NCBI GenBank assembly: GCA_001791995.1
Contig: MGFR01000001.1
Location: 14,880 to 78,879 of the forward strand
Reading direction: 5' to 3'
DNA from: Candidatus Woesebacteria bacterium RBG_13_46_13
GTDB taxonomy: Bacteria; Patescibacteriota; Microgenomatia; UBA8517
Length of the DNA stretch: 64,000 nucleotides
The translations under genes were made by a program, and so were the position numbers. Shown piece after piece: positions 8,017 through 55,974 of the stretch. The number at the start of each line of letters is the position of its first letter. Within the stretch, counting starts at the first letter, position 1. The notes beneath the pieces are model-generated. The model was given only the letters and a program-made list of their open reading frames with translations. It was not told the DNA's origin and did not search any database.

Positions 8017-8091
8017 GGGGACAAAAGAACAGGGCCAGGAACCAGAAATCGCACGAGGCGAAACTGGGCCTGGCCCAAGCATCGAATCTTC

Positions 8092-9340: not shown

Positions 9341-9434
9341 TCTTCTCCTCCGGTTTTTAAAGGGCGAATTCGGCGTGGCTCAATATACACCCAAATTGTT
9401 TTCGAGGCAAAATTGTGCTAAATTATGCCAATCC

Positions 9435-9508: not shown

Positions 9509-9571
9509 CCCATATCCCACGGGGAGTGTGCACTACAATTTAGCCAAACTCGCATATATAATAGAAATCGT

Positions 9572-11704: not shown

Positions 11705-11706
11705 TC

Positions 11707-11734
11707 TTGCAATCCTTGCATTCTGTGGTATAAT
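11707..11734 (+). promoter_or_regulatory. Sigma70-like promoter TTGCAA-N16-TATAAT upstream of the GC-rich gene, with a 5' UTR of about 240 nt.
   Basis: TTGCAA at 11707-11712, a 16-nt spacer, and TATAAT at 11729-11734. Confidence 0.5.
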
Positions 11735-11799
11735 ATCGCAGTTCCCAATTGGCCCTTAAGCGGGCTTCAGATATGGGGTTTTTAGGTTCCTAGTACATT

Positions 11800-11815
11800 A
11801 ACAACGGGAGAACAA
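11800..11815. repeat. Left copy of a perfect 16-bp inverted repeat, AACAACGGGAGAACAA.
   Basis: It is the exact reverse complement of 13224-13239. It lies in the 5' UTR of the GC-rich gene. Confidence 0.6.
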
Positions 11816-11977
11816 AAACAAACGCCATCCCTGGCGATAATCAGGGAAACGCACGGTTTGCCTTAGACGGAGAAGTCTCTTGAGACTGCTAGCATGCAAA
11901 TCTCATGAGGAGCAGTCTCCCAAGGAGATCTATCCGCCAAGGGCAATCCTATTTCAAACGCACAACGGAGGTGCACA

Positions 11978-13159: not shown

Positions 13160-13177
13160 CTTCTCTCTGCCGCCCAA

Positions 13178-13220
13178 CTGAGGGGCACCTGCACCTTTTG
13201 GTGCCCCTCAGTTTCAGTTT
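13178..13220 (+). terminator. Rho-independent terminator of the GC-rich gene.
   Basis: Perfect 12-bp stem CTGAGGGGCACC / GGTGCCCCTCAG with a 10-nt loop, followed by TTTCAGTTTC. Confidence 0.7.
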
Positions 13221-13223
13221 CTC

Positions 13224-13239
13224 TTGTTCTCCCGTTGTT
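13224..13239. repeat. Right copy of the 16-bp inverted repeat, TTGTTCTCCCGTTGTT.
   Basis: Reverse complement of 11800-11815. It lies immediately after the terminator. Confidence 0.6.
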
Positions 13240-13262
13240 CTACTTCATCTGCTAAAATAACC

Positions 13263-14267: not shown

Positions 14268-14281
14268 CTTATTTTCCCACT

Positions 14282-14312
14282 AAAAAACCACCTCATTAAA
14301 GGGTGGTTTTTT
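14282..14312. terminator. Bidirectional intrinsic terminator. It ends the plus-strand CDS and lies about 100 nt beyond the 16S 3' end on the minus strand.
   Basis: AAAAAACCACC-TCATTAAAG-GGTGGTTTTTT, with A-tract and T-tract on either side. Confidence 0.7.
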
Positions 14313-14411
14313 GTTGTCTTTGACGACCAGGAAATGACTAGGAGGAAGCCCGTTTTCTTAACAGTGAAACGGCGAATTTAAAACTGGGGTGTAAAATACC
14401 ACACTCCTTAG

Positions 14412-15869
14412 AAAGGAGGTGATCCATCCGCACCTTCCAGTACGGATACCTTGTTACGACTTAATCTTCATCGCTGGTGTCACCTTCTGCCCGAACATCG
14501 GACATTCGGGTGCCCCCAACTTTGCTGACTTGACGGGCGGTGTGTACAAGACCTGAGAACGTATTCACCGCGACATAGCTGATTCGCGATTACTACCAAT
14601 TCCGCGTTCATGAGGGCGAGTTGCAGCCCTCAATCCCTACTGAGAAGCCGTTTGATGGGATTAGCTCCGTGTTACCACTTGGCAACCCATTGTCGGCTTC
14701 ATTGTAGCATGTGTGTTGCCCCGGACATAAGGGCCATGCTGACTTGACGTCGTCCCCACTTCCTCCTCGCAAAGCGAGGCTGTACCATATGAATATTCAA
14801 CATATGGAAGGGGTTGCGCTCGTTACCCCACTGAAGGGAACACCCCACGGCACGAGCTGACGACAGCCATGCAACACCTGTGCTATCATCCTTACGGATC
14901 GGTCTCCGTTTCTGGAGACTTAAACGATAGCATGTCAAACCCGGGTAAGGTCCTTCGGTTCGTCTCGAATTAAACCACATGCTCCACTGGTTGTGCAGGT
15001 CCCCGTCAATTCCTTTGAGTTTTAAGCTTGCGCTCGTACTCCCCAGGCGGCTCGCTTAACGCGTTAGCTTACGGAACCCCCGATAAATCGAGGATCCCTA
15101 GCGAGCAAAGTTTACGGCTAGGACTACAGGGGTCTCTAATCCCTTTCGCTCCCCTAGCTGTCGTTCCTCAGCGTCAAAGATTCCCTAGCTACTTGCCTTC
15201 GCCCTTGGTGTTCCTCTCGATATCAACGGATTTCACCCCTACACCGAGAGTTCCAGTAGCCCCGAGAACTTTCAATCTAAGTAGTATTACACCCCTTCCC
15301 AAGGTTAAGCCCTGGTCTTTGAAGTGTAACTTACCTAGTCGCCTACGAAACGCTTTACGCCCAGTAAATCCGGATAACGCTTGCACCCTCTGTATTACCG
15401 CGGCTGCTGGCACAGAGTTAGCAGGTGCTGATTCTCCAAGCTCATTGGTGCTTGGCAAAAGAGGTTTACAACCCGAAGGCCTTCATCCCTCACGCGGCGT
15501 CGCGGCGTCAGACTTTCGTCCATTGCGCACGATTCCCAGTTGCTGCCACCCGTAGGTGTATGGGCCGTGTCTCAGTCCCATTCTGGGGGGTCACGCTCTC
15601 ACGTCCCCTACCCGTCATAGCCTTGGTAGGCCATTACCCTACCAACAAGCTGATGGGAGATAGGCTCATCCCTCGGTGCGCAGTTACGCGCTTTCTCCTT
15701 GCGGACTTATGCGGTATTAGCCCGTCTTTCGACGGGGTATTCCCCGCCAAGGGGTAGATTCCTATCTTATACTCAGCCGTTCGCAACTTGCCTCTTGCGA
15801 GGCCCGTTTTACTTGCATGCTTAAAGCACGCCGCCAGCGTTCATCCTGGACCAGGATCAAATCCTCAAA
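14412..15869 (-). rRNA. rrs: 16S rRNA, about 1.46 kb, no intron apparent
   Basis: Minus-strand 5' end GAGGATTTGATCCTGGTCCAGGATGAACGCTGGCGGCGTGC. The 3' end is ...GTAACAAGGTATCCGTACTGGAAGGTGCGGATGGATCACCTCCTTTC. Confidence 0.95.
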
Positions 15870-16201
15870 TTGTGACGGAAGGAAAACCACACGAACGTGG
15901 CTCTCCCGTCCTATATAAAGCACTCCTAGTCATTTCCTGATTGCCGAATATTAGCATTCGGTCCCGCATGGCTCCCGTTAGAGCCTGGTGGGATCAAGAA
16001 ATATTAATTGCTGTCTTTAATTGTTAAGGTTCAAGCTAAAAGTAACAGGAAACAAGCTATAAGTAGGCAGAAAAGACGAAAAATCAAACTAATGAAAATA
16101 AACTAAGCCTTTCTTTACTTGTAACTTGTTGCCTAATACTTTTAAGGTCCTGAAGTTGTTACCCTAAAGGGAAGTTAACCTCTACTGAAGAAAATTTTGA
16201 C

Positions 16202-20923: not shown

Positions 20924-21880
20924 TCAACCCTTAAGTTCGGCGAGGTAACTTAATACATCCATGCCTGCCATGCAGCCGTATCCTGCAGCTGTCACCGCCT
21001 GGCGATAGTGCCAATCGTGCACATCTCCGGCAACAAAAATGCCCGGGACGTTGGTTTTGGAGTTCTCGTAAACTTTGATATATCCCTTCTCGTCAAGCTC
21101 AATGGGGCCTTTAAAAAGCTCACTTTCCGGTCTATGACCGATTGCAATAAATATCCCGTCTAGGGCAAGTTCAGAAGTTGTATTGTCCTTGTTGTTTTTT
21201 AAGATTGCCTTCTCCAGTTTTTGCTCACCTTTCGCTTCAACTACCTCGGTATTCCACAATATTTTAACTTTGGGGTTAGCCATCACTTTTTGCTGCATGG
21301 CCTGGGAGGCCCGGAATGCATCCCTGCGGTGGATAATCGTGACCGAGGTTGCATACTTTGTCAGAACCAAAGCCTCCTCCATTGCAGAATCCCCTCCTCC
21401 GACCACCGCCACGTTCTTGTCCTTGAAAAAAGGAGCATCGCAGGGAGCGCAGGAGGAAACCCCCCTGCCGATAAGTTTGGAGATTCCGGGAGCATCGAGC
21501 CAGAGTGTTGCTGCACCGGTTGCGATGACTATCGTCTTGGCCAGATATTTCTCTCCGGCTGAGCTAATCTCGAAAGGTTTCTTGCCCAGATCAACGCTTT
21601 GGACATTGGACTGGATAAACTCGGCCCCGAACCTCTCGGCTTGTTTCCTCATGGCCATCATTAGGTCGGGCCCCTGAATTCCGTCGGGAAAACCGGGAAA
21701 GTTATCAACGCCGGTTGTGAGCATTAGCTGTCCGCCCCACTTTTCTCCTCCAAGAATAACCGATGAAGCAGCACCGCGAGTGGTATAAATTGCGGCAGTT
21801 AAGGCAGCCGGACCCGAACCAATAATCGCAACATCCCAAGCTTCCCCCTCTTTTGGTTTGAGAGCAAAAACTTCGTCCAT
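20924..21880 (-). CDS. trxB: Thioredoxin-disulfide reductase
   Basis: FAD motif IIGSGPAALTAAIY, a redox-active CAPC pair, NAD(P) motif VVGGGDSAMEEA. 318 aa. Confidence 0.9.
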   Translation of the reverse strand: MDEVFALKPKEGEAWDVAIIGSGPAALTAAIYTTRGAASSVILGGEKWGGQLMLTTGVDNFPGFPDGIQGPDLMMAMRKQAERFGAEFIQSNVQSVDLGKKPFEISSAGEKYLAKTIVIATGAATLWLDAPGISKLIGRGVSSCAPCDAPFFKDKNVAVVGGGDSAMEEALVLTKYATSVTIIHRRDAFRASQAMQQKVMANPKVKILWNTEVVEAKGEQKLEKAILKNNKDNTTSELALDGIFIAIGHRPESELFKGPIELDEKGYIKVYENSKTNVPGIFVAGDVHDWHYRQAVTAAGYGCMAGMDVLSYLAELKG

Positions 21881-21890
21881 TTTTCCTTGA

Positions 21891-22163
21891 CTACATTACG
21901 GGAGCTGCCGGCGGTGTACCACCGGTAGATCCAGTCCCTTCTTCCTTGGCTGGTTCCTCAGCGGTCGTAGCTGTCGGCTCCTCTGTGGAAGCGGGCACTG
22001 TCGGTTCAGGTGTTACAACCGGTGTCTCCGGAACAACTGTCGGCTCGGGAGTAACTACCGGTGTCGGCATAGGTGCTTGAACTGGCGTATCTACCGCCGG
22101 TGCGGCGGGAGTGTCAGTTGGAGCTCCTGGTACTTGCGGGTTCTGTGTTTGATTCGGATCCAA
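21891..22163 (-). CDS. Low-complexity Pro/Thr/Glu-rich ORF filling the trxA-trxB gap. It may use a TTG start, and may not be coding.
   Basis: 90 aa; PT-repeat composition only. Confidence 0.3.
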   Translation of the reverse strand: MDPNQTQNPQVPGAPTDTPAAPAVDTPVQAPMPTPVVTPEPTVVPETPVVTPEPTVPASTEEPTATTAEEPAKEEGTGSTGGTPPAAPVM

Positions 22164-22487
22164 TTAACTCACCCCCTTTTTCAATAAATCTGCGAATGCT
22201 TGTTTTCCGGCAAAGCCCACCTGGCGGTCCAACTCTTTTCCTTCTTTAAAAAGAATCGTTGTGGGGATACTCATCACTCCGAATTTCTGAGCAATGGCTG
22301 GGTTTTCATCAACATTAAGCTTGGCTATGCCTATTTTTCCTTTGTATTCATCGGAGAGCTCCTCAAGGACAGGCTCGGCCATCTTGCAAGGACCGCACCA
22401 GGAAGCCCAAAAATCTACAAGTACCGGAGTTGCGCCTTTTATGACCTTCTCTTCAAAATCTTTCTCGCTGGTATCAAAGGTTGCCAT
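22164..22487 (-). CDS. trxA: Thioredoxin
   Basis: WCGPC active site (FWASWCGPCKM). 107 aa. Confidence 0.9.
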   Translation of the reverse strand: MATFDTSEKDFEEKVIKGATPVLVDFWASWCGPCKMAEPVLEELSDEYKGKIGIAKLNVDENPAIAQKFGVMSIPTTILFKEGKELDRQVGFAGKQAFADLLKKGVS

Positions 22488-32095: not shown

Positions 32096-33073
32096 TCAGA
32101 AGAATTCCGCGACAACAAAGCCGATATAAAGAAGGAGCAATATCCCCGCCTCCCAGCGATCGAGTCTCAATTTACTTCTCACAAAGAACCAAAATGTCAA
32201 AAAGACCACTACAAAAGCGGCTGCTGCTATTGAAACTTCTTTTACGGCAACAACCTCGATGGGATAAATCGTGGCCGCCATTCCCAGTATCAAGGTTGAG
32301 TTGGCAATTATCGAACCCAATAGGTTGCCGAGAAACATGGTAGGCTCCTTGTCTTCCAGGCTCCTGATGGAAAAAGCCAGCTCGGGCAGAGTTGTACCGA
32401 CCGAAAGCAATATTAAACCAACCAGAAATATGGGAAAGTTAGAAATTATCGCAATCTCTTTGGCAACTTTAACGATGACATCGGCTGAAAAGATAAGCAG
32501 GGCAACGCCGATAAAGAGTTTGGCAAATTCTCGAGCCTTATGAATATCCATTTGCGGATTGGTAAAATTCCTCAGGAACCGATGAACATAACCTTCTTTT
32601 CTGTGCTGATGTGCGATCTGCAAAAAACGCTCTTTAAAGAAACTTGTCACATAGGCGCCATAGACAGCCAGCAGAATCAAGCCGTCAACTCTGCTAAGAC
32701 TCCCGTCTATGAGCATGACCAGCGGAATAATTCCGGCAACCAGAGCAATCCCTACTTCCCTTCTGATAAACTCGCTGTGAACATTGACTCGACCGATGAT
32801 AAACGCGGAAAGGCCGGCAACGAGAGTAATGTTGGCAATGTTTGCGCCAAGCACGTTGCCCAAAGACAGATGCGGCGCTTCCTCAAGGGCGGAGGTTATT
32901 CCCACGAACAGCTCGGGAAAAGAAGTGGCCATGGCCAGAAGAACCGCGGACAAAGCAAATACTTTGGTATGTGTTTCGACACTCAATCTCTTTAGAGACA
33001 CAACCACAATATCAGCTGACCTAATCAGAAGAAGAACAAACAGAAAAAATAAAATTACCAAACCCGGTATCAT
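32096..33073 (-). CDS. Na+/Ca2+ exchanger (CaCA family) membrane protein
   Basis: Two alpha-repeat motifs, GNVLGANIANITLVAGL and GNLLGSIIANSTLILG. About 10 TM segments. Confidence 0.8.
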   Translation of the reverse strand: MIPGLVILFFLFVLLLIRSADIVVVSLKRLSVETHTKVFALSAVLLAMATSFPELFVGITSALEEAPHLSLGNVLGANIANITLVAGLSAFIIGRVNVHSEFIRREVGIALVAGIIPLVMLIDGSLSRVDGLILLAVYGAYVTSFFKERFLQIAHQHRKEGYVHRFLRNFTNPQMDIHKAREFAKLFIGVALLIFSADVIVKVAKEIAIISNFPIFLVGLILLSVGTTLPELAFSIRSLEDKEPTMFLGNLLGSIIANSTLILGMAATIYPIEVVAVKEVSIAAAAFVVVFLTFWFFVRSKLRLDRWEAGILLLLYIGFVVAEFF

Positions 33074-34791
33074 TTTTTCGACAGAGACTTCTGCATTTCA
33101 AACAAGGTATTTAGTTCTGTAATGGAAGTTGCCTGCTCAGGGGACTTCTCGTCCCTGAAACGGATCAGCCGGGGAAACCTCAGGGCCAACCCGGCGGTAT
33201 GGATGGGGCTACGGGTTATCTCGTCGGCCAAAATCTCCACAACCAAAGACGGCTTGACCCACGCATCCGGAGTCAGATTCTTGGGTACCTCATATTCTTT
33301 AGGTCTATCCTTTATCTTAAGACTCCTGGCTCTTTTGTCCATTTCCCGCCACTGCTCATCCGTTAAGCCCGTTCCTATCTTGGAAACGGACAAAAACCTG
33401 GTACCCTCCTTTACCCCTACCAAAAATGCGCCAGCCCCGAAACCGGCTCTTTTGCCCCGACCTTTATATATTCCCAGCACCAAACAATCGACGGTATCCG
33501 CCAGACCACCTTCCGTGGTTTTTTTGTATTTGACCCAATGGTAGCCCCTACCCCCGGCTTTATAGGGGGCATCAATCTTTTTAATCAGAGCCCCCTCCAA
33601 ACCCTCCGCCAAGTATTTTTTGATCAGGTCCCGGATGACCTCTGCCGAGGCAACCTTCTCCTGCCGGGTGATCTCGATCGCCTCCCCTGCTTCGGGGATT
33701 ACCCCCTCAAGAGTCTTTCGCCTTTGGTCAAAAGGGACATTGAGAAAGCTTTTGCCGTTGAGATAAAGGACGTCAAAGATAAAAAGTTTGAGGGGGAAAT
33801 CCTTGACCGCCTGCTCGATGCCGTGTTTTCTCTTCCTCTGAACCGTTTCCTGAAAAGGCAGGAATCTCTTGCTCTTGGGTTCATAACCGATTGCCTCACC
33901 GTCGAAAATCGCGTTTTTGACCTTTAAACCTTTGGCGGCTGCCACCAAATCGGGAAACATCGGGGTAGTGTTTTCCAAATTCCTGGAGAAGATGGCTACG
34001 GTTTTTGCCCCGTCTTGCTCGTAAATATGCACTTGGGACCTAAACCCGTCGTATTTGGGTTCAACGTAGACCTCGCGGCCGACCTTTTCCAGTATTTTCT
34101 CGGCCGAGGGCAGCCTCTCCGCCAAAGAGGGTCTAATCGGGGTCCCGGGCTCTGGAACAATCGCCTCAAGGGAGGATAGCCCCCGGGCTTTGACTTTTTG
34201 GGCAATTTTGCCGATATCGGCCGTGACGTTGAAAGCGTGTTCGATCTCAACCCGGGCACCTTTGTCGCCCTTAACCATATAAGAAAGGGCATCCAGAATC
34301 GTCATGTCGGAAAAACCGAGCCTGAGCTTGCCGACGGGAATTCTGGCCACGAATCTGGCGCTTAAGGGATCTAGCTCTCCCAAGAGTTTTGCGGTTCCGC
34401 TGACCTTTCTTTCCTGGCTACCCGCACCTGCCTCCCTGGCAATTTCCATTAGCTTGTCATAGACAGCACTCACACTTAAGGCACCTCCGTCGGCGATGGC
34501 CAAACTCTGGGCAACATTACCCAAATCACCCATCTGTTTGTATAAGGCTTTGACTTTATTGATATCCTCGTCGTAGGCCTGGGCAATAACTCTCAACATC
34601 ATCCTCTCGGCGATATTTAGGGTTATGGCCATGTAGTTGGGTGCCAGCTGCCCCAAAAGCAGATAGATAACCTTGTCTATTTCTTCCTTGTCTGCGGTTT
34701 TGAAAAGTTGGGATAGTATCTGGGTGATTTCGTTTCTCGAAGCAGTTTTTTCTAGTTTGTCCAGGTATTGGGAGAGTGCTTTGAAAGTCAT
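33070..34791 (-). CDS. ATP-dependent DNA ligase
   Basis: KxDG motif EPKYDGFRSQVHI, plus an OB-fold and a DNA-binding domain. The track ORF extends to 34896; the start is probably MTFKALSQYLDKLE at 34791. Confidence 0.85.
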   Translation of the reverse strand: MTFKALSQYLDKLEKTASRNEITQILSQLFKTADKEEIDKVIYLLLGQLAPNYMAITLNIAERMMLRVIAQAYDEDINKVKALYKQMGDLGNVAQSLAIADGGALSVSAVYDKLMEIAREAGAGSQERKVSGTAKLLGELDPLSARFVARIPVGKLRLGFSDMTILDALSYMVKGDKGARVEIEHAFNVTADIGKIAQKVKARGLSSLEAIVPEPGTPIRPSLAERLPSAEKILEKVGREVYVEPKYDGFRSQVHIYEQDGAKTVAIFSRNLENTTPMFPDLVAAAKGLKVKNAIFDGEAIGYEPKSKRFLPFQETVQRKRKHGIEQAVKDFPLKLFIFDVLYLNGKSFLNVPFDQRRKTLEGVIPEAGEAIEITRQEKVASAEVIRDLIKKYLAEGLEGALIKKIDAPYKAGGRGYHWVKYKKTTEGGLADTVDCLVLGIYKGRGKRAGFGAGAFLVGVKEGTRFLSVSKIGTGLTDEQWREMDKRARSLKIKDRPKEYEVPKNLTPDAWVKPSLVVEILADEITRSPIHTAGLALRFPRLIRFRDEKSPEQATSITELNTLFEMQKSLSKK

Positions 34792-34796
34792 TCGGG

Positions 34797-35000
34797 TTAG
34801 CCTTTTTGTCCGAGATAGGTCGAAAAGAAAAGATAAGCAAAGACAACAACGGCCAGAAACATCAGTCCAAAAAGGATGCTGATGACCCCGCTCCACTCCT
34901 CGTGGATTATTTTGTTTAAGCCCTCACCAATTAAAGTCAGCCCGAAAAGCGAAGGCAAAACCAAAATCATATATAAAAATTGTGGGTCGGTTGCGCTCAT
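34797..35000 (-). CDS. Small 2-TM membrane protein
   Basis: 67-aa hydrophobic ORF between fic and the ligase. Confidence 0.35.
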   Translation of the reverse strand: MSATDPQFLYMILVLPSLFGLTLIGEGLNKIIHEEWSGVISILFGLMFLAVVVFAYLFFSTYLGQKG

Positions 35001-46724: not shown

Positions 46725-49049
46725 TTAAAGCTTGGCCCTTCGGGTAATCTCTGCTTCCACCAGACGCATATCGCGACCGTAGCGTAATTTGCTCATTTCT
46801 TTGATTATCTGGGCAACCCTCTCGTTTTCCACTTCCTTGAGTTTCCCCATATCGCGGGTCAAATCCATTGAAAAAGGCGGAACCGGCTCGTTATTGACAG
46901 TAGTTTTGGCGTAGACGTGGTAGCGCTCGATATTTAAGAGGTCATCCTCGGCGAAGGTCGGGGTAAATTCATGAGCCAGGTAGGAAGCGTCGGTTACCCC
47001 TACCCTAAAGGCGATAATCGTTCCGACGTTGCCGAAGACGGCATTTTTAACCTCTTCTTCTACCTGACCAATAAATTGGTTGGCAACAGTGAGGTTAAGC
47101 CGATACTTTCTGGCTTCGGAAAGGATCTGGGCGAAGTCCGGAGTGGCAAAGTTTTGAAACTCGTCAACATAAAGATAGAAGTCCCGCCTTTTATCCTCGG
47201 GCACATCTTGCCTGCTCATGGCCGCCATTAGAATTCTCGGGACCAAAACCAGGCCCAGGAAGTTCGAGTTTTCCTCCCCAATCTCGCCTTTGGCCAGATT
47301 GATAAGGAGGATCTTGCCGGAATCCATCACCTCGCGGAAAGAGAATGAAGACTGGGATTGCCCGATGATGTTTCTGATCATCTTGTTGGTAACAAACCTG
47401 CCGAATTTGGAAACAATGTAGTCCAAGACCTCGGACTTGTGGAAATCCGCCGTCTGGGCGATTTGGTCGGTCCAATAGCGCCGGACAATGGGGTCGGTTA
47501 CTTTTGGCAGGAGTTCGGCCACAAACTGGGAGTCGGTCAGAATCCTCATGACCTCGACAAAAGTTGAGCCCTCGTCGCTCATGGCCGTCAGCATGGCATT
47601 TCTGACCGCGTGTTCAAATCTGGGTCCGACAATGCCGGTCTTATATGGATCGAAGAGCTTGTACATCATGTTAATCACCGAGGTGGCCACAAAGTGTTTC
47701 TCGTCTTCGGTATGGGCCTCAAGCAAATTTAGGCCCATCGGCCGTTCGGTATCCCCGGGGTTAAAGTAGATGACATCCTCGGCGCGCTCGGGCGGGATAA
47801 GCTTTAGAAGGTCCTCGATGGCATCTCCGTGCGGGTCCATAAAACAAAGGCCGCGTCCGGCGCGGATATCCTGCATAATCAAATCCTTCAAAAGTTCGGT
47901 CTTACCCGTCCCGGTTTTACCGATGATATAGACGTGTCTTCTTCTGTCGTCGTCTCCGATATAGACCGGTCTTTTGATTCCCCGGTAACTGCTTAATCCC
48001 AAATAAAGACCTTGCGAGGGAATCTCCGAGGGAGCCGGGGCTGTTTTGGAGTAGAGCCAATAAATATGGGGGGTGGTAACCTGCTTGTTGGGAAAATGAT
48101 AGACGGTGGAAAGTTCCTCGGAATTAAGTATCGATGAATGGCTACCTAAGACATGGAACATCGGCTGATACCTGTAGAGAAAGTCTTCCATAAAAGCACC
48201 CTTGCTTCTTATTTTTCTGCCTTTAAAGCCGTTGGCTTCCGAGCTGAACTGTTCAAAACTGGAGGCGATATTCTCGATATGCATTTTGGCAACCTCGATG
48301 GTTGGGGCCGTGGTTACAATTCTGGTTGAAACCTCGAATCCGGGCTTACCGATTTTTGCCTCAACCGCTTCCAGAGTTTTGGCCGAGGTGGAAAACTTGG
48401 CCTTTTGAGGATCGGATTCCTGTTTTTTGGTGTCTGAAATAAAACTTCGTCCTTCTTTCTGCCAGGAAGAATCGGCGGGAGAAACCAAAATTTGGATTGC
48501 GGCTGCCTCACCCTCCCCCATTTTTGCTAACGCCGATGTCAAAAGAGCCAGAGAATCGGTGGGTAATTCCTTATAAGTCTTGATCGGATAAAAATTGCCC
48601 CGGGAGAGCTGGAAAGATTTATAGGCAACCTTACCCTTTTCCGGAAAGATATTATATTCTTCGACCTCGACAACCTCTGCCTCCGGGTAGGCCCCGTGGA
48701 TTTGTTTTTCCACCAAATCCTTAAGTTTTCTTGATGTCCAAACGTAAAAACGGATGTCTTCTTTCTTGGCTACAATCTCGAACGAAACCGTCGGCTGAAC
48801 CGAGAATTTTTGTTTAAAGCCTCCCTTTTTAATTGAATAAAGCGAGGCGAAGAGCTGTTCCATGGCATCGATCTTTATTTCATTCCCGCGTGGAACCGCC
48901 ACCTGCAGTAAAACGGAGTCCAAAGACCTGCCCTCCCTGCCGCGATTGCGGAATAAGGTAAAGGCGACATAGCCCGTAAAAGCCACCAAAAGGGATCCCA
49001 GTCCCAAAAGGATTAGGGCAGCTACGATCGTATTTAAACTAGGCAGCAC
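46725..49049 (-). CDS. VirD4/TraD/TrwB-like type IV coupling-protein-like ATPase, copy 2, with an N-terminal TM anchor
   Basis: 774 aa. N-terminal TM segment IVAALILLGLGSLLVAFTGYVAFTLF. Walker A IIGKTGTGKTELL, DPHGD, Walker B FYLYVDEFQNF, and ANQ. It is a full-length paralog of 9572..11704. Confidence 0.85.
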   Translation of the reverse strand: MLPSLNTIVAALILLGLGSLLVAFTGYVAFTLFRNRGREGRSLDSVLLQVAVPRGNEIKIDAMEQLFASLYSIKKGGFKQKFSVQPTVSFEIVAKKEDIRFYVWTSRKLKDLVEKQIHGAYPEAEVVEVEEYNIFPEKGKVAYKSFQLSRGNFYPIKTYKELPTDSLALLTSALAKMGEGEAAAIQILVSPADSSWQKEGRSFISDTKKQESDPQKAKFSTSAKTLEAVEAKIGKPGFEVSTRIVTTAPTIEVAKMHIENIASSFEQFSSEANGFKGRKIRSKGAFMEDFLYRYQPMFHVLGSHSSILNSEELSTVYHFPNKQVTTPHIYWLYSKTAPAPSEIPSQGLYLGLSSYRGIKRPVYIGDDDRRRHVYIIGKTGTGKTELLKDLIMQDIRAGRGLCFMDPHGDAIEDLLKLIPPERAEDVIYFNPGDTERPMGLNLLEAHTEDEKHFVATSVINMMYKLFDPYKTGIVGPRFEHAVRNAMLTAMSDEGSTFVEVMRILTDSQFVAELLPKVTDPIVRRYWTDQIAQTADFHKSEVLDYIVSKFGRFVTNKMIRNIIGQSQSSFSFREVMDSGKILLINLAKGEIGEENSNFLGLVLVPRILMAAMSRQDVPEDKRRDFYLYVDEFQNFATPDFAQILSEARKYRLNLTVANQFIGQVEEEVKNAVFGNVGTIIAFRVGVTDASYLAHEFTPTFAEDDLLNIERYHVYAKTTVNNEPVPPFSMDLTRDMGKLKEVENERVAQIIKEMSKLRYGRDMRLVEAEITRRAKL

Positions 49050-49383
49050 TTTGTTCTCTCCTTCCTGTAACTATCCTCCAGCCAAAATGGACGGCCCTTT
49101 TAAAGACCCTCATCCAAAAGGCCGCAAACCAGGTGATGGCCTCGTCCGGAGTTCCTTTGGACAAAGCCGAAAGCTGATCTTTTTCCCCGGGAAGTTCGAT
49201 GGTAACGGGCTCCGTTGCCGAAGTTCCGATGAGGGCCCTACCGCTATCATCCGTTACCTGGGCCTTAAATTGGCTGGGAGTTGGAACTACTACCCCCTTA
49301 TTCTCAACGGTAATGGGAATCTCGGGAAATTCCTCTGCCCTATCTTCGACCGGTAAATGCTCTCTTTCTGGAGATGCAACCAT
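49039..49383 (-). CDS. Hypothetical protein immediately upstream of and overlapping the VirD4-like gene. The C-terminus is amphipathic and Trp-rich.
   Basis: 114-aa ORF ending AITWFAAFWMRVFKRAVHFGWRIV. It overlaps the downstream gene by 11 nt. Confidence 0.45.
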   Translation of the reverse strand: MVASPEREHLPVEDRAEEFPEIPITVENKGVVVPTPSQFKAQVTDDSGRALIGTSATEPVTIELPGEKDQLSALSKGTPDEAITWFAAFWMRVFKRAVHFGWRIVTGRREQSAA

Positions 49384-49398
49384 GACAAATTCATTGTA

Positions 49399-49935
49399 TC
49401 ACTTCCCCCTGCCTCTCCAAGCCTCCTCTGTCATCCCGTCCCGGTGATTGACCTGCCGCCCCAGCATAAATAAATAGTCGGAGAGCCTATTGATATAGAC
49501 CAAAAGCTCCGGCTTAAGCGGGGTTATTGCGTTTAAGCGAACTAGGGCCCTCTCGGCTCTTCTGACCAGAGTCCTGGCAAAAAAAAGCCTGGCCCCTACC
49601 CCAGAGCCTCCCGGAAGAATAAAGTTTTTAAGAACAGGTAAGGCTCCTTCAATCTTATCAATCGCCCTTTCGATCTTTTTGGTTTTGGATTTGGCAAATC
49701 TTAAAGGAGCTCCTGCCAGAATGGAGCCCACCGTAAAAAGATTCCTCTGCACCTCCTTCAGCTCTTGCAATCCGGAATCTTCAGCCAGAATTATACCGAG
49801 GTAGCTGTTGGCCTCATCGATGGCTCCGATTGCCCGAATCCGCAAGGAAGATTTATCTACCCTGGTTCCCCGAAAAAGTGAAGTCTCCCCTTTATCCCCC
49901 TTCTTGGTGTAGACGGCCATGGCAAATTCTATCAC
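49399..49935 (-). CDS. PduO-type ATP:cob(I)alamin adenosyltransferase
   Basis: Signature VYTKKGDKGETSL near the N-terminus; about 175 aa. It lies directly downstream of the two B12-dependent RNR genes. Confidence 0.85.
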   Translation of the reverse strand: MIEFAMAVYTKKGDKGETSLFRGTRVDKSSLRIRAIGAIDEANSYLGIILAEDSGLQELKEVQRNLFTVGSILAGAPLRFAKSKTKKIERAIDKIEGALPVLKNFILPGGSGVGARLFFARTLVRRAERALVRLNAITPLKPELLVYINRLSDYLFMLGRQVNHRDGMTEEAWRGRGK

Positions 49936-52074
49936 TCAGAGCTCACAAGTGGAAAACCCGCAGCGTTCACACTTATAGCACTTTCCGTCTTTGATTAAAT
50001 CTATGTCGCAGTTGGGGCATTTCATTTTCTTTTGCGAATAATTCTGGCTGCCGCCGAATTCAAATACCTGGTTGGCCTTGGTCCGGTCGCGGTAGACGGT
50101 TAGACCTTTGCAGCCCAATTTCCAGGCTAGGATATAGGCCTCCTCGATTTCTTTGGGGGTCACGGTTGAGGCCATATTGATGGTTTTGGTAATGGCATTA
50201 TCGGTTGCGCTCTGGAAAGCGGCCTGCATTTTGATATGGTCCCGCCAGGAAATATCGTGGGCAACCCGAAAAACTCTCTGTAGGGATTTAGGAACTCCTT
50301 TGACCCCCTGCACGCTGCCGTGGTTGTCTATAATTTTCTGGATAAGATCCTCGGAGAAAATTCCTTTTTCTTTGAGCTTTTCCACAAAAAGAGGGATAAC
50401 CGTTTTAAGCCTCACGCCCTCCAGCACGTTTTGCTCGTAGGCAACCGCAAAATAGGGTTCAATCCCAAATGAGGTATCACAGATTACAGCGTTTGAGGAG
50501 CTTGGGGGGAAGGTTAATAGGGCAACATTCCTGGGCTTCCTTTTGGTCTTCGCCCAGATGGAATCCTTAACCAGAGGAAAGGAGCCCTTCTCTTTCGCCA
50601 GCTTACAGGATTCATCGAATGCGTTGGTATACATAGTCCCAACCACTTTTTTGGCCAGGGCGAAAGCGCGGGGGCTGTCGTAAGGAATGTCAAGCCGGCT
50701 TAAAGTCTCCGCCCAGCCGACGGCACCTATTCCGATTCTCCTGTGCTCCCGAACGGCTTTTCTGACCTCGGCTACCGGAAACCACGAGGCCGTAATCACG
50801 TTATCCATCAGTCTTACCGCAACCCTAATAACCCTGGCCATTCTCTCAAAATCGAATCTTTTGCCTTTGACGAAATTCGCAAAATTAAGATAGCCCAGGT
50901 TACAGGACTCATAAGGATATAAAGGCACTTCCCCGCAGGGATTGGTGGCTGTAATCGGACCCTTTTTGGCCAAGAGCGGATTGGCCTGGGCAGTGCCTCT
51001 GTTCATCGCCGAAAGATTGATTATTCCGGGATCCCCCGTTGACCAGGCCATGTTGGCCATCAAGTCAAGAATGCTTTTGGCATCGACGGTGTTTACAATT
51101 TGAGCGGTTCTGGGGTTAATTAGATTCCAGCTTTTACCGGCTACCGCCGCTTTCATAAACTCATCGGTTACCCCTACCGAAATATTCGTCTTGGAAAGAT
51201 ACCCATCCGAGGCCTTGGCCGAGATAAAATTGAAAATGTCGGGATGGTTGGCGTTTAAAATCGCCATATTTCCGCTTTCGTATTTGCCTTCCTGTCTAAA
51301 AAGCGAGGTCATCAGGTTAAACATCTCAATCATCTTGACCGGCCCCGCGGCCAAGTCCGGAATGCCGCCGACGATATCCCCTTCGGGTCTGATACCGGAA
51401 AAGTTATAGCCGCAACCACCCCCGTGTTTTTTGATCAGGGTGGATTTATGCAAGATGGCAAAGATATCGTTGATATCATCCTTAATCGGCCAGACAAAAC
51501 AGTTGGCCAACTGGGCAGAAATCTTGCCGGCATTGGCCAAGGTTCTGGAGCCCGGCAGAAAATCGAAAGAAGTCATCATTTCTTTGAATTTAAGGTACCA
51601 CTCATTTACTTTCTCTTTGCCCTTTTCTACCCTTGCCAGGGCCTTGGCCACCCTGTCGATCATCTCGGCCGGGGTTTCAACGATTTCCCCATCGGCATTT
51701 CTTTTGAGGTACCTCTGTTTGAGGATATAAAGGGTGTTATAGGGAAGACCGATATCATCCTTAATCCCTAAAGAGCTTTTGTCCTGATGCAGATGTTTTT
51801 TGTTTTCTCTATAAACGATAAAAGCCTTGGCGGTTCGGGCATGTCCGTTTTCGATCAGAACTTTTTCAACCAGGTTTCCGATCTCGGCGGTTGAGACAGT
51901 CTCGCCGTTGGTAAATTTAACTTTTAATAGCTTTAATACCTGGTTAGCCAAAACCACCGAGAGGCTTTTGTCCGTTCCCCCGACATTCTGGGCAGCCATA
52001 AAAATACTGCTGGAGATTTTTTCCGGCTTAAACTCTTCCTGGCTGCCGTCGAGTTTGGCTACTTTTTTGAGCAT
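49936..52074 (-). CDS. nrdJ: Class II (adenosylcobalamin-dependent) ribonucleotide reductase, 712-aa paralog
   Basis: Active-site NPCGEVPLYPYESCNLGYLN, a glycine-rich B12 region, and a C-terminal Cys4 ribbon CPNCD...CYKCERCG. Confidence 0.9.
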   Translation of the reverse strand: MLKKVAKLDGSQEEFKPEKISSSIFMAAQNVGGTDKSLSVVLANQVLKLLKVKFTNGETVSTAEIGNLVEKVLIENGHARTAKAFIVYRENKKHLHQDKSSLGIKDDIGLPYNTLYILKQRYLKRNADGEIVETPAEMIDRVAKALARVEKGKEKVNEWYLKFKEMMTSFDFLPGSRTLANAGKISAQLANCFVWPIKDDINDIFAILHKSTLIKKHGGGCGYNFSGIRPEGDIVGGIPDLAAGPVKMIEMFNLMTSLFRQEGKYESGNMAILNANHPDIFNFISAKASDGYLSKTNISVGVTDEFMKAAVAGKSWNLINPRTAQIVNTVDAKSILDLMANMAWSTGDPGIINLSAMNRGTAQANPLLAKKGPITATNPCGEVPLYPYESCNLGYLNFANFVKGKRFDFERMARVIRVAVRLMDNVITASWFPVAEVRKAVREHRRIGIGAVGWAETLSRLDIPYDSPRAFALAKKVVGTMYTNAFDESCKLAKEKGSFPLVKDSIWAKTKRKPRNVALLTFPPSSSNAVICDTSFGIEPYFAVAYEQNVLEGVRLKTVIPLFVEKLKEKGIFSEDLIQKIIDNHGSVQGVKGVPKSLQRVFRVAHDISWRDHIKMQAAFQSATDNAITKTINMASTVTPKEIEEAYILAWKLGCKGLTVYRDRTKANQVFEFGGSQNYSQKKMKCPNCDIDLIKDGKCYKCERCGFSTCEL

Positions 52075-52080
52075 ATGAAA

Positions 52081-54672
52081 TCAACACTCCGAGTGACCAC
52101 AAGCGTGACATTTGGAGCAGCCCTCTTCATAGACGAGGGCAGAAGCACCGCAGGAGGGACAAATATCACCTGTCGCCTCCTGTATTCCGAAAGATAAGTT
52201 CGAACTTTTTGTTGTTTCTAGGTCAAGGACGGCTTTTACTCCGTTGGCGTGGGTCTTGCCATTTGCTAAGTGGCCATTAGTATAGCCTCCGTTGGGGGCC
52301 TCTGCAGCACCGTCATACGCGGCCGAAGCCATTGTGGGGTCGGATGAACCCGTTAGGGTTTGTTCCGCAGGGGCAGAACTACTCGCCGCCATAACAGCTC
52401 CAGCCACGTGTGACGTGGCTTCAGAATGACCGTTGCCGTTGATTCTAAATCCATAGTGGGTCGAAAGAGCAACGCTGATAGCATCGGGCAGGGAGCGGAT
52501 TTTATTCGGACCAAATCCAACCGAACGCCTACCCCCGATTCCGGAAAGCTGGTGCGCAATTTCCTTGGCTTTCTCCCTCGGATTAAGACTACCACGAAAA
52601 CGCAGGGCCGTGGAGATTGTCCTGCCTAAAGCCTCGGCCATGGCGGCGACATCGCTACCCGCCTTGCCGACATTGATAAATACCTCCAAGGGGTCTCCGG
52701 TTGCGTCCTGATTGATGGTCACAAAGGCGCTTCCCACCGGAGTCATGAGCTTATAAGTTACTCCCATCACCTTCAGGGGCCGCTCCCTCAAAGGTGCGCT
52801 TCCTTCTTCGACGGTATCCTTGACTCCCAAATTTAATACTTGGGCATCTTTGGAGCCGTCCCGAAATATGGTTATACCCCGACAGCCCGTCTCCCAGGCC
52901 GAAAGGTAAGCTTTTTTGACATCCTCAACCGTAGCGTCGTGGCTTAGGTTGATAGTTTTGGAAACCGCATTTTCGGTATATTTCTGGAATGCCGATTGCA
53001 TCTTTACATGCCAGGTCGGATCAATTTCGTGGGCCGTACCGAAAACCTGCCTGACATCTTCGGGAATTTCGGCAATTTGCCTGACTACTCCCTCCTCTCC
53101 CACCTTTTCTCTTAGCCCGTCCGACCAAAATCCCTTTTTCCTGGCAACTTCCTCAAATTTGGGATTAACAAAAGACAGTTTTCTCTCCAAGTGTTTGTCC
53201 TTGACGATATGCTGATAGGCGATGGCAAAAAGAGGTTCTATCCCCGATGAGGCTCCGGCAATAATGGAGATCGATCCTGTTGGGGCAATGGTTGTCACCG
53301 TAGAATTTCTCCTCGGAGCACTACTTTTGTAAATACTTACCGGCCAGAGAGGGAACGGACCCCGCTCGCGGGCTAGCTCAATTGTTTCCGCTTCCGCTTC
53401 TTGCTGAACGGTTTTCATAATCTTTTCCGCCAGGGAAAGCGCTTTCTCGCTATCGTAGGCAATTCCCAAGGCAACCAGCATGTCTGCCCAACCCCCGACC
53501 CCCAGCCCGACCCTTCTGATCGCCAGGGTCGTGCGACGGATGGACTCAAGAGTATAGGGGTTCATCTCGATGACCCCGTCCAAAAACCTGACCGCAAGTC
53601 TGGAGGCCTGCTTTAGCTTTTCCCAATCGACTTCGGCTTTCCCGCCATCTTCTTTGACAAAATAAGTCAAAAAGATACTTCCCAAATTACAGGAGTCGAA
53701 AGGGTAAAGCGGCTGTTCCCCGCAGGGATTGGTGCTTTCCACCGGTCCCAGGCTCGGAGTCGGATTGGCACTACCCGCGTTAATCCTGTCGATAAAGATA
53801 AGACCGGGGTCTCCTGTTCTCCAGGCGCCGTTGACGATTTCCTCAAAAACTTTTCGGGCCGATACCTCCCCCACCTTCTCGCCGTTTTTCGGATTTATCA
53901 AATCGTAATTTTTATCTTTCTTGAAAGCCTCCATGAACTTGTTGGTAATGGCAACCGAAATGTTGAAATTGGTTATTCCCCCTTCTTCCTTGCAGTGGAT
54001 AAACTCCATGATGTCGGGATGGTCCACCCTTAATATCCCCATATTGGCCCCCCGGCGCTTGCCCCCTTGTTTGACTTCGTTGGTGGCGGCATCGAAGATG
54101 CGCATAAAGGAAACCGGACCTGAAGCCGTACCTTTGGAAGACTTGACCATTGAGCCCTTGGGCCTTAAACGGCTAAAGGAAAAGCCTGTTCCTCCCCCGG
54201 TTTGATGAATCAGGGCTTGCCACTTTAAGGCATCGAATATCCCGACCAAAGAATCCTCAACGGGCAAAACAAAACAGGCCGAATACTGCAGGCGGTTACC
54301 CGTCCCGGCATTCATCAGGGTGGGTGAATTGGGCAGAAATTCGTGGCTGGCCAAAAGCAGATAATACTTTCTGGCAATTTCGATCACCTGGCTTTTGTCT
54401 TTCCCCCAGAGAACCTCTGCCGAGGCGATTTCCCAGGCAACCCGCCAACACATCTCTTCTGGGGTTTCAATAATTGCTCCTTCTTTATCCTTATAAAGAT
54501 AGCGTTCCGAAAGCACCCTTAAGGACTGTTCGGTCCAGGCGCCCTTGGGCAAATCCTCGGGCAAGCGGGGTCTTTTCCCCAGCTTTTTATCGATTTGGGT
54601 CCTGACCTCTAAATATGGAGGAAAATTCAAATCTTCGAGTTTTATTTCTTTTTTGGCTTTTGTTTTTGGCAT
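52081..54672 (-). CDS. nrdJ: Class II ribonucleotide reductase, long (about 860-aa) paralog with an extended C-terminal domain
   Basis: NPCGEQPLYPFDSCNLGSIFL and C-terminal CPSCG...CSKCHACG. The start is probably MPKTKAKKEIK at 54672, 7 nt after the nrdR stop. The track ORF runs to 54744. Confidence 0.9.
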   Translation of the reverse strand: MPKTKAKKEIKLEDLNFPPYLEVRTQIDKKLGKRPRLPEDLPKGAWTEQSLRVLSERYLYKDKEGAIIETPEEMCWRVAWEIASAEVLWGKDKSQVIEIARKYYLLLASHEFLPNSPTLMNAGTGNRLQYSACFVLPVEDSLVGIFDALKWQALIHQTGGGTGFSFSRLRPKGSMVKSSKGTASGPVSFMRIFDAATNEVKQGGKRRGANMGILRVDHPDIMEFIHCKEEGGITNFNISVAITNKFMEAFKKDKNYDLINPKNGEKVGEVSARKVFEEIVNGAWRTGDPGLIFIDRINAGSANPTPSLGPVESTNPCGEQPLYPFDSCNLGSIFLTYFVKEDGGKAEVDWEKLKQASRLAVRFLDGVIEMNPYTLESIRRTTLAIRRVGLGVGGWADMLVALGIAYDSEKALSLAEKIMKTVQQEAEAETIELARERGPFPLWPVSIYKSSAPRRNSTVTTIAPTGSISIIAGASSGIEPLFAIAYQHIVKDKHLERKLSFVNPKFEEVARKKGFWSDGLREKVGEEGVVRQIAEIPEDVRQVFGTAHEIDPTWHVKMQSAFQKYTENAVSKTINLSHDATVEDVKKAYLSAWETGCRGITIFRDGSKDAQVLNLGVKDTVEEGSAPLRERPLKVMGVTYKLMTPVGSAFVTINQDATGDPLEVFINVGKAGSDVAAMAEALGRTISTALRFRGSLNPREKAKEIAHQLSGIGGRRSVGFGPNKIRSLPDAISVALSTHYGFRINGNGHSEATSHVAGAVMAASSSAPAEQTLTGSSDPTMASAAYDGAAEAPNGGYTNGHLANGKTHANGVKAVLDLETTKSSNLSFGIQEATGDICPSCGASALVYEEGCSKCHACGHSEC

Positions 54673-54679
54673 TTCTAAT

Positions 54680-55123
54680 CTAAGCTTTATCGATGGCCTT
54701 TTCAAAATCGCTGGTATCCTCAAACTCCAAGTAAACACTGGCAAATCTTAACCAGGCTACCTTGTCAATTTTTTTAAGTCTTTTTAAGACCGCGTTGCCT
54801 ATTATCTTGGACGAGACCTCTTCGGTCCCGCGTCTGAGCATTTCTCTTTCGATATCGTTGACGATGTCATCCACCAGCTCCAGGGAAACCGGTCTTTTCT
54901 CGATGGCTCTTAATATTCCCCTTTTGACCTTCTCCCTTTCGAACGGTTCTCTCCTACCGTTTTTTTTGATTACCCACAAAACCGTTTCTCTGACTTTTTC
55001 GAAAGTGGTAAAACGTTTACCGCATTTGCCACACTCGCGTCTGCGTCTGATCGCTGTTCCTTCATCGACAGTCCTGGATTCTAATACCTGACTGTCTTCC
55101 CCTGCACAAAAAGGACATTTCAT
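54680..55123 (-). CDS. nrdR: Transcriptional repressor NrdR
   Basis: N-terminal zinc ribbon MKCPFC...CGKCGKRF plus an ATP-cone; 147 aa. Confidence 0.9.
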   Translation of the reverse strand: MKCPFCAGEDSQVLESRTVDEGTAIRRRRECGKCGKRFTTFEKVRETVLWVIKKNGRREPFEREKVKRGILRAIEKRPVSLELVDDIVNDIEREMLRRGTEEVSSKIIGNAVLKRLKKIDKVAWLRFASVYLEFEDTSDFEKAIDKA

Positions 55124-55157
55124 ACAATAATTTCCATTTCACAAATGTAAACAAAAA

Positions 55158-55207
55158 TCACTATTACTAGGGACAGGCTAGATATTCCAACACTAGATAT
55201 ATTCAGT
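55158..55207. promoter_or_regulatory. Two imperfect NrdR-box-like palindromic elements upstream of nrdR: TCACTATTACTAGG and ACACTAGATATATTCAGT
   Basis: Both have ACACTA...TAGT-type half-sites about three helical turns apart. The second overlaps a candidate minus-strand promoter TTGACT-N17-GAATAT. The match to the ACACwAtATaTwGTGT consensus is only partial. Confidence 0.25.
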
Positions 55208-55356
55208 CAACTAGCAACTTTTGTGTCAAAAAATATCACCCTACGCATACCCCGAAGCTGTAAAATCTTGTCCGAAAAATATTTTTTGCTTTTTGGAAAG
55301 GAGTCTTTCCTCAAAAAGTTAAAAGGCCAAATTATTTTTTATCCCAAAAAATCTGT

Positions 55357-55974
55357 TTAGTCCCCATTAAAGGGGTTTTCCGGGGCGGGTATTCCGCGGG
55401 AGAGAAGAGAATTTTTACAGAGGGTATAGGCTTCTTTGGAATAGCTAATCGATTTGACGATATCCGGTTTAGCGTCTTCGGGGGCAATATTTAACAGTTG
55501 CTCCTGGACCTGTCGGTGTTTAAGGGCGGCGAGGGCCACCTGTTTGGATAAATTTTTGCTGTCTACCCCACTCTTCCAGCACTCATCAACCAGGGTGCTG
55601 GCCATTTCCAAATATTTCTCGGCTTTGGTCAGAGTTGAGTAAGCCAGACCGGCCTTGCCGTTTTCAAATAAAATCTTGCTGGAAACCAATCTTTTGTCGG
55701 CAAAAAGAAGCATCAACTCCGCCTGGCGTGAGCGGTTGAGTGTGACCAAAAGCCAAAGTTTATCTCTTAGGGCCTTGAGTGGCCAGAGAGGATTGTCGGG
55801 TAAAATTCTGCCCGGATAAGGCAATTGATACTCTATCTCGGGAATAACACCGTTATCTTTATTGGCCCCCTGGTAAAAGGAATATTTAATGGAGGCGGCC
55901 TTTAAAACCGATACGGAAAGAATAAAAAAGGCCAAGAGTATGGTGGAGAACGTTACGGCCAGCTTTTTGTACAT
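55357..55974 (-). CDS. Secreted or membrane-anchored hypothetical protein (DUF5667-like)
   Basis: 205 aa with signal/anchor LAVTFSTILLAFFILSVSVLKAAS. Confidence 0.5.
   Translation of the reverse strand: MYKKLAVTFSTILLAFFILSVSVLKAASIKYSFYQGANKDNGVIPEIEYQLPYPGRILPDNPLWPLKALRDKLWLLVTLNRSRQAELMLLFADKRLVSSKILFENGKAGLAYSTLTKAEKYLEMASTLVDECWKSGVDSKNLSKQVALAALKHRQVQEQLLNIAPEDAKPDIVKSISYSKEAYTLCKNSLLSRGIPAPENPFNGD

Follow-up and report, generated by a model that had tools for sequence, protein, structure and literature searches.

A nrdR-nrdJ-nrdJ-pduO gene cluster of Woesebacteria that probably encodes two non-redundant class II ribonucleotide reductases

Introduction

A stretch of 64,000 nucleotides (nt) from Candidatus Woesebacteria bacterium RBG_13_46_13 (assembly GCA_001791995.1, contig MGFR01000001.1, positions 14,880 to 78,879; hereafter the window) carries on its minus strand nrdR, two nrdJ genes for class II ribonucleotide reductases (RNRs) and a pduO gene, in this order. 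Analysis of this region indicates, with moderate confidence, that the four genes form an operon conserved in Woesebacteria, a lineage of the Candidate Phyla Radiation (CPR), and that its two adenosylcobalamin (AdoCbl)-dependent RNRs are non-redundant enzymes from different NrdJ lineages. The long enzyme (NrdJ-L) has the features of a canonical reductase of ribonucleoside diphosphates (NDPs). The short enzyme (NrdJ-S) appears to represent a subclass, new here and restricted to Woesebacteria, in which the phosphate loop is a hybrid, loop 2 departs from the canonical form and the ATP-cone is modified.

Why some organisms retain two reductases that depend on B12, and why reducers of diphosphates and of triphosphates both exist, are open questions in the RNR field. 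More than one nrdJ gene is present in 1108 of 24,059 GTDB genomes, and 760 of these (69%) mix predicted NDP and ribonucleoside triphosphate (NTP) types (PMC8365446, Schell et al. 2021, J Biol Chem 297:101008). As such mixed genomes have already been published, the pairing of NrdJ-L and NrdJ-S is to be expected, and an earlier reading of this DNA from the letters alone (the sequence-only reading) went too far in calling the duplication unusual. The operon nevertheless offers a compact natural test case, in which a single promoter, repressor and cofactor-activating enzyme accompany two reductases that differ in all of the modules to which phosphate preference, selection of the base and overall activity are ascribed. 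The apical loop of NrdJ-S joins Ser or Thr to Arg, and its biochemistry would test how far two residues determine specificity; if NrdJ-S proved to be an ordinary triphosphate reducer, the pair would merely be another example of the published pattern. For CPR biology, the cluster implies that the deoxyribonucleoside triphosphate supply of these small-genome bacteria relies on salvaged cobalamin. In the literature, no paper describing RNRs of Woesebacteria or the CPR was found.

Gene order and coding sequences

All coordinates follow window numbering. The first gene, nrdR (54680..55123), encodes a repressor of RNR genes of 147 amino acids (aa) with Zn_ribbon_NrdR and ATP-cone domains, matching TIGR00244 with 200.5 bits (cutoff 124.65), PF22811 with 75.3 bits and PF03477 with 69.6 bits. 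Its TAG stop lies exactly 7 nt before ATG 54672 of nrdJ-L (52081..54672), as reported in the sequence-only reading; the program-called open reading frame (ORF) of nrdJ-L opens within nrdR at TTG 54744, and the start at ATG 54672 yields a protein of 863 aa. Six nucleotides separate the TGA of nrdJ-L from the start of nrdJ-S (49936..52074; 712 aa from ATG 52074), which is followed after 0-15 nt by the gene for a PduO-type ATP:cob(I)alamin adenosyltransferase (49399..49935). The latter may start at GTG 49935, abutting the nrdJ stop and giving 178 aa, or, more likely, at ATG 49920, giving 173 aa. The PduO-type protein consists of the N-terminal catalytic domain only, which is matched over its full length (TIGR00636, 157.5 bits, cutoff 108.45; PF01923, 168.5 bits). 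The GC content is unremarkable, and a terminator scan gave no convincing candidate within the operon or before its downstream neighbours. Profile scores and coordinates thus bear out the gene identities and the one-operon layout that had been read from the letters, including the position of the adenosyltransferase gene directly after the second nrdJ.

Domain architecture of the two reductases

Both reductases exceed the cutoff of TIGR02504, the curated NrdJ model (399.95 bits), with 696.5 bits for NrdJ-L and 579 bits for NrdJ-S, and NrdJ-L additionally matches NF006417 (1000.3 bits, cutoff 961). The two proteins are 40% identical over 575 aa. Each of them retains, as had been claimed, the catalytic Cys motifs, namely Cys133, TNPCGE at aa 314-319 and Cys328 in NrdJ-L, and Cys192, TNPCGE at aa 377-382 and Cys391 in NrdJ-S; the catalytic residues of NrdJ-S are invariant among 29 of its homologues. 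The Tyr-Tyr pair of class I enzymes is absent in both proteins, which have VYRD and IFRD instead. Family membership, the lack of this pair and the linkage to pduO lend indirect support to AdoCbl-dependent radical generation by both copies. The monomer-conferring insertion PF21995 gave no match in either window NrdJ, and the top PDB match of both copies is the dimeric NrdJ of Thermotoga maritima (E=4e-119 for NrdJ-L); NrdJ-L is predicted to be a canonical dimeric enzyme.

Outside the catalytic core, the architectures differ. The Pfam domains of NrdJ-L are lgN, lgC and TSCPD, with no ATP-cone, and those of NrdJ-S are an ATP-cone (62.1 bits, cutoff 25.8), lgN and lgC, with no TSCPD. The two copies had been described as collinear but diverged; divergence is confirmed, and collinearity applies to the catalytic core only. 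The TSCPD/IscU-like domain of NrdJ-L (PF12637, aa 647-740; 47.6 bits, cutoff 22.8) contains no conserved Cys and is followed by a low-complexity linker and a six-Cys tail at aa 838-863 (52084-52161) with the spacing C-x2-C-x10-C-x2-C-x2-C-x4-C. The C-terminal extension of the long copy, for which a comparison with known NrdJ domains had been proposed, comprises this domain, the linker and the tail. This C-terminus is of the long class II type, with a Cys-less IscU-like domain and a zinc finger (Burnim 2022, PMC9669993). NrdJ-S has a C-terminus of the short type, in which a six-Cys tail (aa 686-710; 49945-50019; C-x2-C-x9-C-x2-C-x2-C-x4-C) comes straight after the barrel. The Cys4 ribbon that had been assigned to both copies is in each case a six-Cys array, like that of NrdJd of Stackebrandtia nassauensis (C-x2-C-x9-C-x2-C-x2-C-x5-C; Loderer 2017, PMC5704485), a type in which four Cys are zinc ligands and two form a redox pair, and both tails are putative zinc tails. 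In Pseudomonas aeruginosa there are likewise two adjacent nrdJ-annotated genes (PMC4520616); however, NrdJa and NrdJb are one enzyme split into barrel and tail, whereas the two window genes encode two complete enzymes.

Phosphate loops, loop 2 and the ATP-cone

Alignments comprised 115 homologues of the NrdJ-L family and 119 of the NrdJ-S family, and motif states were mapped residue by residue by pairwise alignment in 390 sequences. The apical phosphate loop is PNSP throughout the NrdJ-L family (120/120) and PGTR (89/120) or PGSR (30/120) in the NrdJ-S family, so that PG[T/S]R is found in 119 of the 120 members of the latter, in which the Arg at position 4 is invariant. In the window proteins, PNSP occupies aa 114-117 of NrdJ-L (54322-54333) and PGSR aa 174-177 of NrdJ-S (51544-51555). 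Loop 2, which reads KQGG[KR]RRGANMG in the NrdJ-L family and [RK]QEG[KR]YESGNM in the NrdJ-S family, is KQGGKRRGAN at aa 201-210 of NrdJ-L and RQEGKYESGN at aa 260-269 of NrdJ-S (51268-51297), and its YESGN is invariant across the NrdJ-S family. The distal phosphate loop is APTG[ST]IS in the one family (APTGSIS from aa 463 of NrdJ-L) and FPPSS[GS]NAV in the other (FPPSSSNAV at aa 522-530 of NrdJ-S). With T. maritima NrdJ (1XJE), a dimeric, NDP-reducing class II enzyme, NrdJ-L shares PNSP, KQG.(R/K)RRGA, APTGSIS and NPCGE. NrdJ-S, unlike that enzyme, has PGSR for PNSP, PPSSSNA for APTGSIS and an additional ATP-cone, and a residue-level alignment places its Y265/E266 at the positions of R207/R208.

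The contrast between PNSP and PG[S/T]R is, as read from the alignments, the most informative one between the two copies. In published work, PNSP is the signature of NDP reducers and P-[A/S/G]-G-R that of NTP reducers, with specificity determined by the final two positions (S-P versus G-R), and P-S-M-R and P-Q-G-S-P are further apical variants of the NTP type (PMC8365446). The NDP-type signature is present in NrdJ-L and absent from NrdJ-S. The NTP-type signature is also incomplete in NrdJ-S, which has the Arg at position 4 and, in place of the Gly at position 3, Ser or Thr; because of this replacement, it is placed near the NTP type and not in it. Its loop lies outside the motifs that Schell et al. 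classified or tested (PNSP, P-[A/S/G]-G-R, PSMR, PQGSP) and would be a natural hybrid of an NDP-type Ser with an NTP-type Arg. In other respects the pair resembles the multi-nrdJ genomes of that study, with two full-length NrdJ proteins, one having PNSP and one an Arg-type loop, both retained under selection. The tandem NrdR-controlled operon with pduO and the restriction to Woesebacteria are not described there. The difference in phosphate-specificity motifs had not been noted in the sequence-only reading, which had suggested that the copies may differ in allosteric properties; this suggestion receives direct support, since an ATP-cone is present in NrdJ-S only and loop 2 of NrdJ-S is non-canonical. 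The ATP-cone (aa 4-93) is highly conserved and keeps K7, K19, R89, K92 and K93.

Distribution, synteny and selection

Synteny statistics were obtained from 80 loci found by an alignment-based metagenome scan, with 75 distinct related loci. Of the 48 loci whose flanks are long enough, 46 have a same-strand nrdJ paralogue directly upstream of the nrdJ-S-type gene, which is of the NrdJ-L type in 40; nrdR is found upstream in 41/45 related loci, and pduO downstream of the nrdJ-S-type gene on the same strand in 40/45, within 300 nt in 32. The pairing is ancient and stable. Each family comprises more than 120 clusters at 90% identity, all of them at least 64-68% identical to the window protein, and protein-database entries that match exactly carry the name Candidatus Woesebacteria. 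Both genes are functional and under strong purifying selection, with ratios of nonsynonymous to synonymous substitution (dN/dS) of 0.03-0.06. Synonymous divergence is saturated in distant comparisons (dN near 0.12), and the close relative L015 was therefore used, giving dN/dS values of 0.058 for nrdJ-L, 0.031 for nrdJ-S and 0.012 for nrdR.

Among 1.84 billion representatives at 50% identity, NrdJ-S has one full-length cluster at 66% identity, the rest being at or below 45%, and the closest proteins that share its architecture are archaeal, from Bathyarchaeota and Woesearchaeota. In a bootstrapped neighbour-joining tree of the catalytic core, the NrdJ-S and NrdJ-L families are each monophyletic (100% bootstrap) and are not sisters; NrdJ-S groups with PGGR sequences (60% at the first node and weakly beyond it) and NrdJ-L with PNSP sequences (85%), and one member of the NrdJ-S clade, at locus L063, carries the canonical PGGR. 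A recent tandem duplication is ruled out by the 40% identity and by the greater proximity of each family to other lineages than to its neighbour.

The company of NrdJ-S varies among relatives. Besides NrdJ-L-type PNSP enzymes, its partners include another PNSP type, a PAGR plus C-S-G-K type (giving three genes), three aberrant tail-less paralogues (giving four genes) and a monomeric class II enzyme; at L081, an S-like gene occurs with no adjacent nrdJ. Three or four tandem nrdJ paralogues are present at L061:1930-10139, L065:1973-10139, L001:2919-10154 and L076:3176-10160. At L061 and L065, the first three paralogues have no C-terminal Cys tail, and the six-Cys tail is found only in the last, S-type one; the tail-less paralogues have the apical sequences SGT-, VTRS and PGGS, finger loops NQCGE and NICGE, and three different versions of loop 2. 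The partner at L063:1678-4092 belongs to the monomeric type of class II RNR (RNR-II_ins_dom and RNR_Alpha), carries an ATP-cone and matches PF21995, and a NUDIX gene stands between it and the S-type gene.

Some further variation in relatives was observed. NUDIX/MazG-type nucleotide pyrophosphohydrolase genes lie in or beside the nrd cluster at L001:10157-11017, L063:4052-4549, L023, L026, L065 and L070, and none is present in the window. Some NrdJ-L-type orthologues are about 1230 aa long and carry an intein that includes a LAGLIDADG endonuclease (PF14890, PF14528; P0124, P0129, P0160, P0218 and L062:1354-5049), and the window copy is intein-free. L003 and L004, titled 'Candidatus Saccharibacteria' and 'Gammaproteobacteria', encode S-type proteins 71-75% identical to that of the window, in the order nrdJ, S-type nrdJ, pduO, and L004 also has nrdR and the flanking genes; as they share the Woesebacteria nrd gene order, these labels of metagenome-assembled genomes are probably wrong.

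Possible roles of the two reductases

In the explanation that we favour, one promoter would probably drive all four genes, and NrdR would repress them via two boxes over the -35 and -10 elements. NrdJ-L, with its normal specificity loop 2, is predicted from PNSP to reduce NDPs. NrdJ-S, from an Arg-type lineage (PGGR-like, on the triphosphate-reductase side), would most likely reduce triphosphates or have a relaxed phosphate preference, under allosteric control different from that of NrdJ-L, and the PduO-type enzyme would adenosylate salvaged cobalamin to give the cofactor for both reductases. In NTP reducers, the Arg at position 4 reorients the apical loop, and an NTP reducer whose Gly had been mutated to Ser retained its preference for GTP (PMC8365446).

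Several observations weigh against this assignment of NrdJ-S. Position 3 of its apical loop is Ser or Thr, in contrast to the Gly (or Met) of every characterised NTP reducer, and Ser at this position excludes the gamma-phosphate in NDP reducers (PMC8365446); the phosphate preference of NrdJ-S is uncertain for this reason. The Arg pair that both types have in loop 2 is replaced by Y265/E266 in NrdJ-S, which casts doubt on normal allosteric substrate selection. In characterised ATP-cones, a Lys-Arg dyad together with a C-terminal Arg/Lys holds the triphosphate; the ATP-cone of NrdJ-S has K7-L8 in place of the dyad, and the position of the dyad Arg is occupied by L, A, I, V or N in at least 109 of 119 family members (the five commonest residues, none of them Arg). 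When ranked by overall similarity, the nearest 50%-identity representatives to NrdJ-S are mostly of the PNSP type, and the deep nodes of the neighbour-joining tree are weak (60% for NrdJ-S with P0247 and below 10% deeper).

Some of these observations would fit an arrangement that we consider unlikely, in which both enzymes reduce the same substrates (NDPs) as 'ecoparalogues' differing only in regulation or reductant coupling, with dATP switching NrdJ-S off and NrdJ-L serving as an unregulated housekeeping enzyme. The restriction of the ATP-cone to NrdJ-S, the NDP-type state of Ser/Thr at apical position 3 and the predominance of PNSP-type sequences among the nearest relatives all speak for it. 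However, the invariant Arg of NrdJ-S is the residue that reorients the loop in NTP reducers, the three substrate-contacting loops differ from those of NrdJ-L and are conserved, which is unexpected if regulation alone differed, and the ATP-cone that would have to act as the switch lacks its canonical Arg. The tight tandem might alternatively ensure stoichiometric co-expression of an L/S hetero-oligomer, for example a heterodimer or an assembly with NrdJ-S supplying its ATP-cone or tail in trans. The 6-nt gap, the adjacency in 46 of 48 loci, the confinement of the Cys tail to the S-type enzyme behind three tail-less paralogues at L061 and L065, and the documented inter-subunit electron transfer by a Cys-rich tail (PMC5704485) are in line with this idea; it is nonetheless improbable, given that NrdJ-S occurs with four or more unrelated types of partner and has no adjacent nrdJ at L081, and that both window enzymes have a complete catalytic set and their own tail.

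It is also conceivable, although with quite a low probability, that NrdJ-S is not a general RNR and applies the same radical chemistry to a restricted or non-canonical nucleotide substrate. Its apical loop, distal loop and loop 2 have all been remodelled and then frozen, with YESGN invariant, and relatives with three or four paralogues have a loop 2 of its own in each; yet NrdJ-S scores well above the cutoff of the curated NrdJ equivalog and lies within an NrdR-controlled nrd operon, and such a function would be without precedent. RNR genes are often transferred and their redundancy can be transient (PMC3019208), from which one might suppose that one copy was acquired recently, horizontally or from a phage, and is being lost, or that it is a pseudogene or an assembly chimera. 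This is very improbable. A phage origin, raised in the sequence-only reading, was rejected after a tblastn search against 50,697 phage records, in which the best identities were 36% (NrdJ-S) and 47% (NrdJ-L), and a scan of IMG/VR with S-specific peptide patterns found no S-type gene; the number of clusters at 64-68% identity or more and the unremarkable GC content also argue against recent acquisition. Inactivation of one copy, which would have undermined the earlier reading, is ruled out by the invariant catalytic residues and the low dN/dS, and a chimeric assembly, which would likewise have done so, by the gene order: the arrangement is not an assembly artefact because it recurs across dozens of independent assemblies.

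A bolder reading may also be considered. Published work infers a single change of phosphate specificity in NrdJ evolution. NrdJ-S, as a subclass nearly confined to Woesebacteria, may mark a second, independent switch of specificity, or it may reduce both NDPs and NTPs. CPR bacteria may divide ribonucleotide reduction among specialised enzymes, in place of a single enzyme reprogrammed allosterically, since the two to four paralogues of relatives each have a different loop 2. We regard this reading as speculative and rather improbable.

Putative promoter and NrdR operator

A region upstream of nrdR (55158..55210, minus strand) contains a putative promoter and NrdR operator, identified by sequence reading and by conservation in related loci. 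The -35 element TTGACT (55210-55205) is overlapped by putative NrdR box 1, TGAATATATCTAGTGT (55205-55190), and is followed by a -10-like GAATAT (55187-55182) and by putative box 2, TCCCTAGTAATAGTGA (55173-55158). The two predicted boxes are offset by 32 bp and overlap the conserved promoter. Most of 43 distinct relatives share the layout of an AGTTGAC(A/T) -35 element, a box 1 ending in ..CTAGTGT, a -10-like hexamer and a box 2 of the form CACTA-N4-TAGTG. Box spacing and a conserved C/G pair 9 bp apart agree with the published NrdR box logo (PMC9110341), and the left half of box 1, overlapping the -35 element, fits less well. The two boxes would constitute the operator at which NrdR controls the nrd operon. 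The conserved TTGAC(A/T) promoter escaped a consensus promoter scan, whose hits were no more numerous than in shuffled sequence.

The arrangement resembles the nrdRJ operon of Streptomyces coelicolor (Borovok 2004; Rozman Grinberg 2022, PMC9110341), in which nrdR comes first and nrdJ next and two palindromic NrdR boxes lie about three helical turns apart over the promoter, as predicted here from sequence. Unlike in S. coelicolor, nrdR is followed by two nrdJ genes and pduO, and box 1 is weaker in its left half. A further palindrome, TTTACATTTGTGAAA (55137-55151, minus strand), lies between box 2 and the nrdR start. Relatives have a palindrome TTTCAyNNrTGAAA about 20 nt upstream or a perfect palindrome, TTTCATATGAAA, that includes the nrdR ATG. 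This element could be the site of a second regulator or fold into a hairpin that masks the start codon. An Rfam search of the window yielded nothing at gathering score, and for 49000-55500 nothing at E<=1, so that neither a cobalamin riboswitch nor another RNA element was found.

Cobalamin and electron supply

The view that AdoCbl is made locally from salvaged cobalamin is a sound reading of the gene order, in which pduO follows the short nrdJ in 40 of 45 loci. The window protein resembles PduO-type adenosyltransferases (TIGR00636, human MMAB type) in its full-length match to the catalytic domain. It differs in that a C-terminal DUF336 domain is missing and that its gene is linked to nrdJ and not to genes for the use of diols or ethanolamine or for methylmalonyl-CoA mutase. 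At L001, genes for DUF6580 and DUF4430 proteins, the latter presumably transcobalamin-like, lie beside pduO; no homologue of either was found in the 64-kb window. Ten further window proteins were scanned against Pfam, and no B12 transporter was found among them, a result that applies to the window alone.

Genes for thioredoxin reductase (20924-21880) and thioredoxin (22164-22487), on the minus strand with a 90-aa ORF (21891-22163) between them, lie 27 kb from the operon, and nearby ORFs encode a P-type ATPase-like protein and a membrane protein resembling DsbD. This thioredoxin system (20924-22487) is a candidate reductant for the RNR tails. Thioredoxin failed to reduce S. nassauensis NrdJd, the only characterised six-Cys NrdJ (PMC5704485).

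Neighbouring genes and other features of the window

Downstream of pduO and in the same direction, 15 nt past its end, lies a gene for a 114-aa protein with no family match (49039..49383, minus strand), which overlaps a gene for a 774-aa TrwB/TraG-like ATPase (46725..49049, minus strand) with weak Pfam matches and with DUF8128 in relatives. The order of pduO, the 114-aa gene and the ATPase gene is kept at nearly all related loci, some of which have insertions of 2-3 kb before these two genes. Both genes are probably outside RNR function.

Elsewhere in the window, the 16S (14412-15872) and 23S (4751-7666) rRNA genes lie about 6.7 kb apart in a minus-strand region (4584-15872), with several ORFs between them and a GC content of up to 0.585 at 12-14 kb. 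An ATP-dependent DNA ligase with DNA_ligase_A_N, _M and _C domains is encoded at 33070-34896 on the minus strand.

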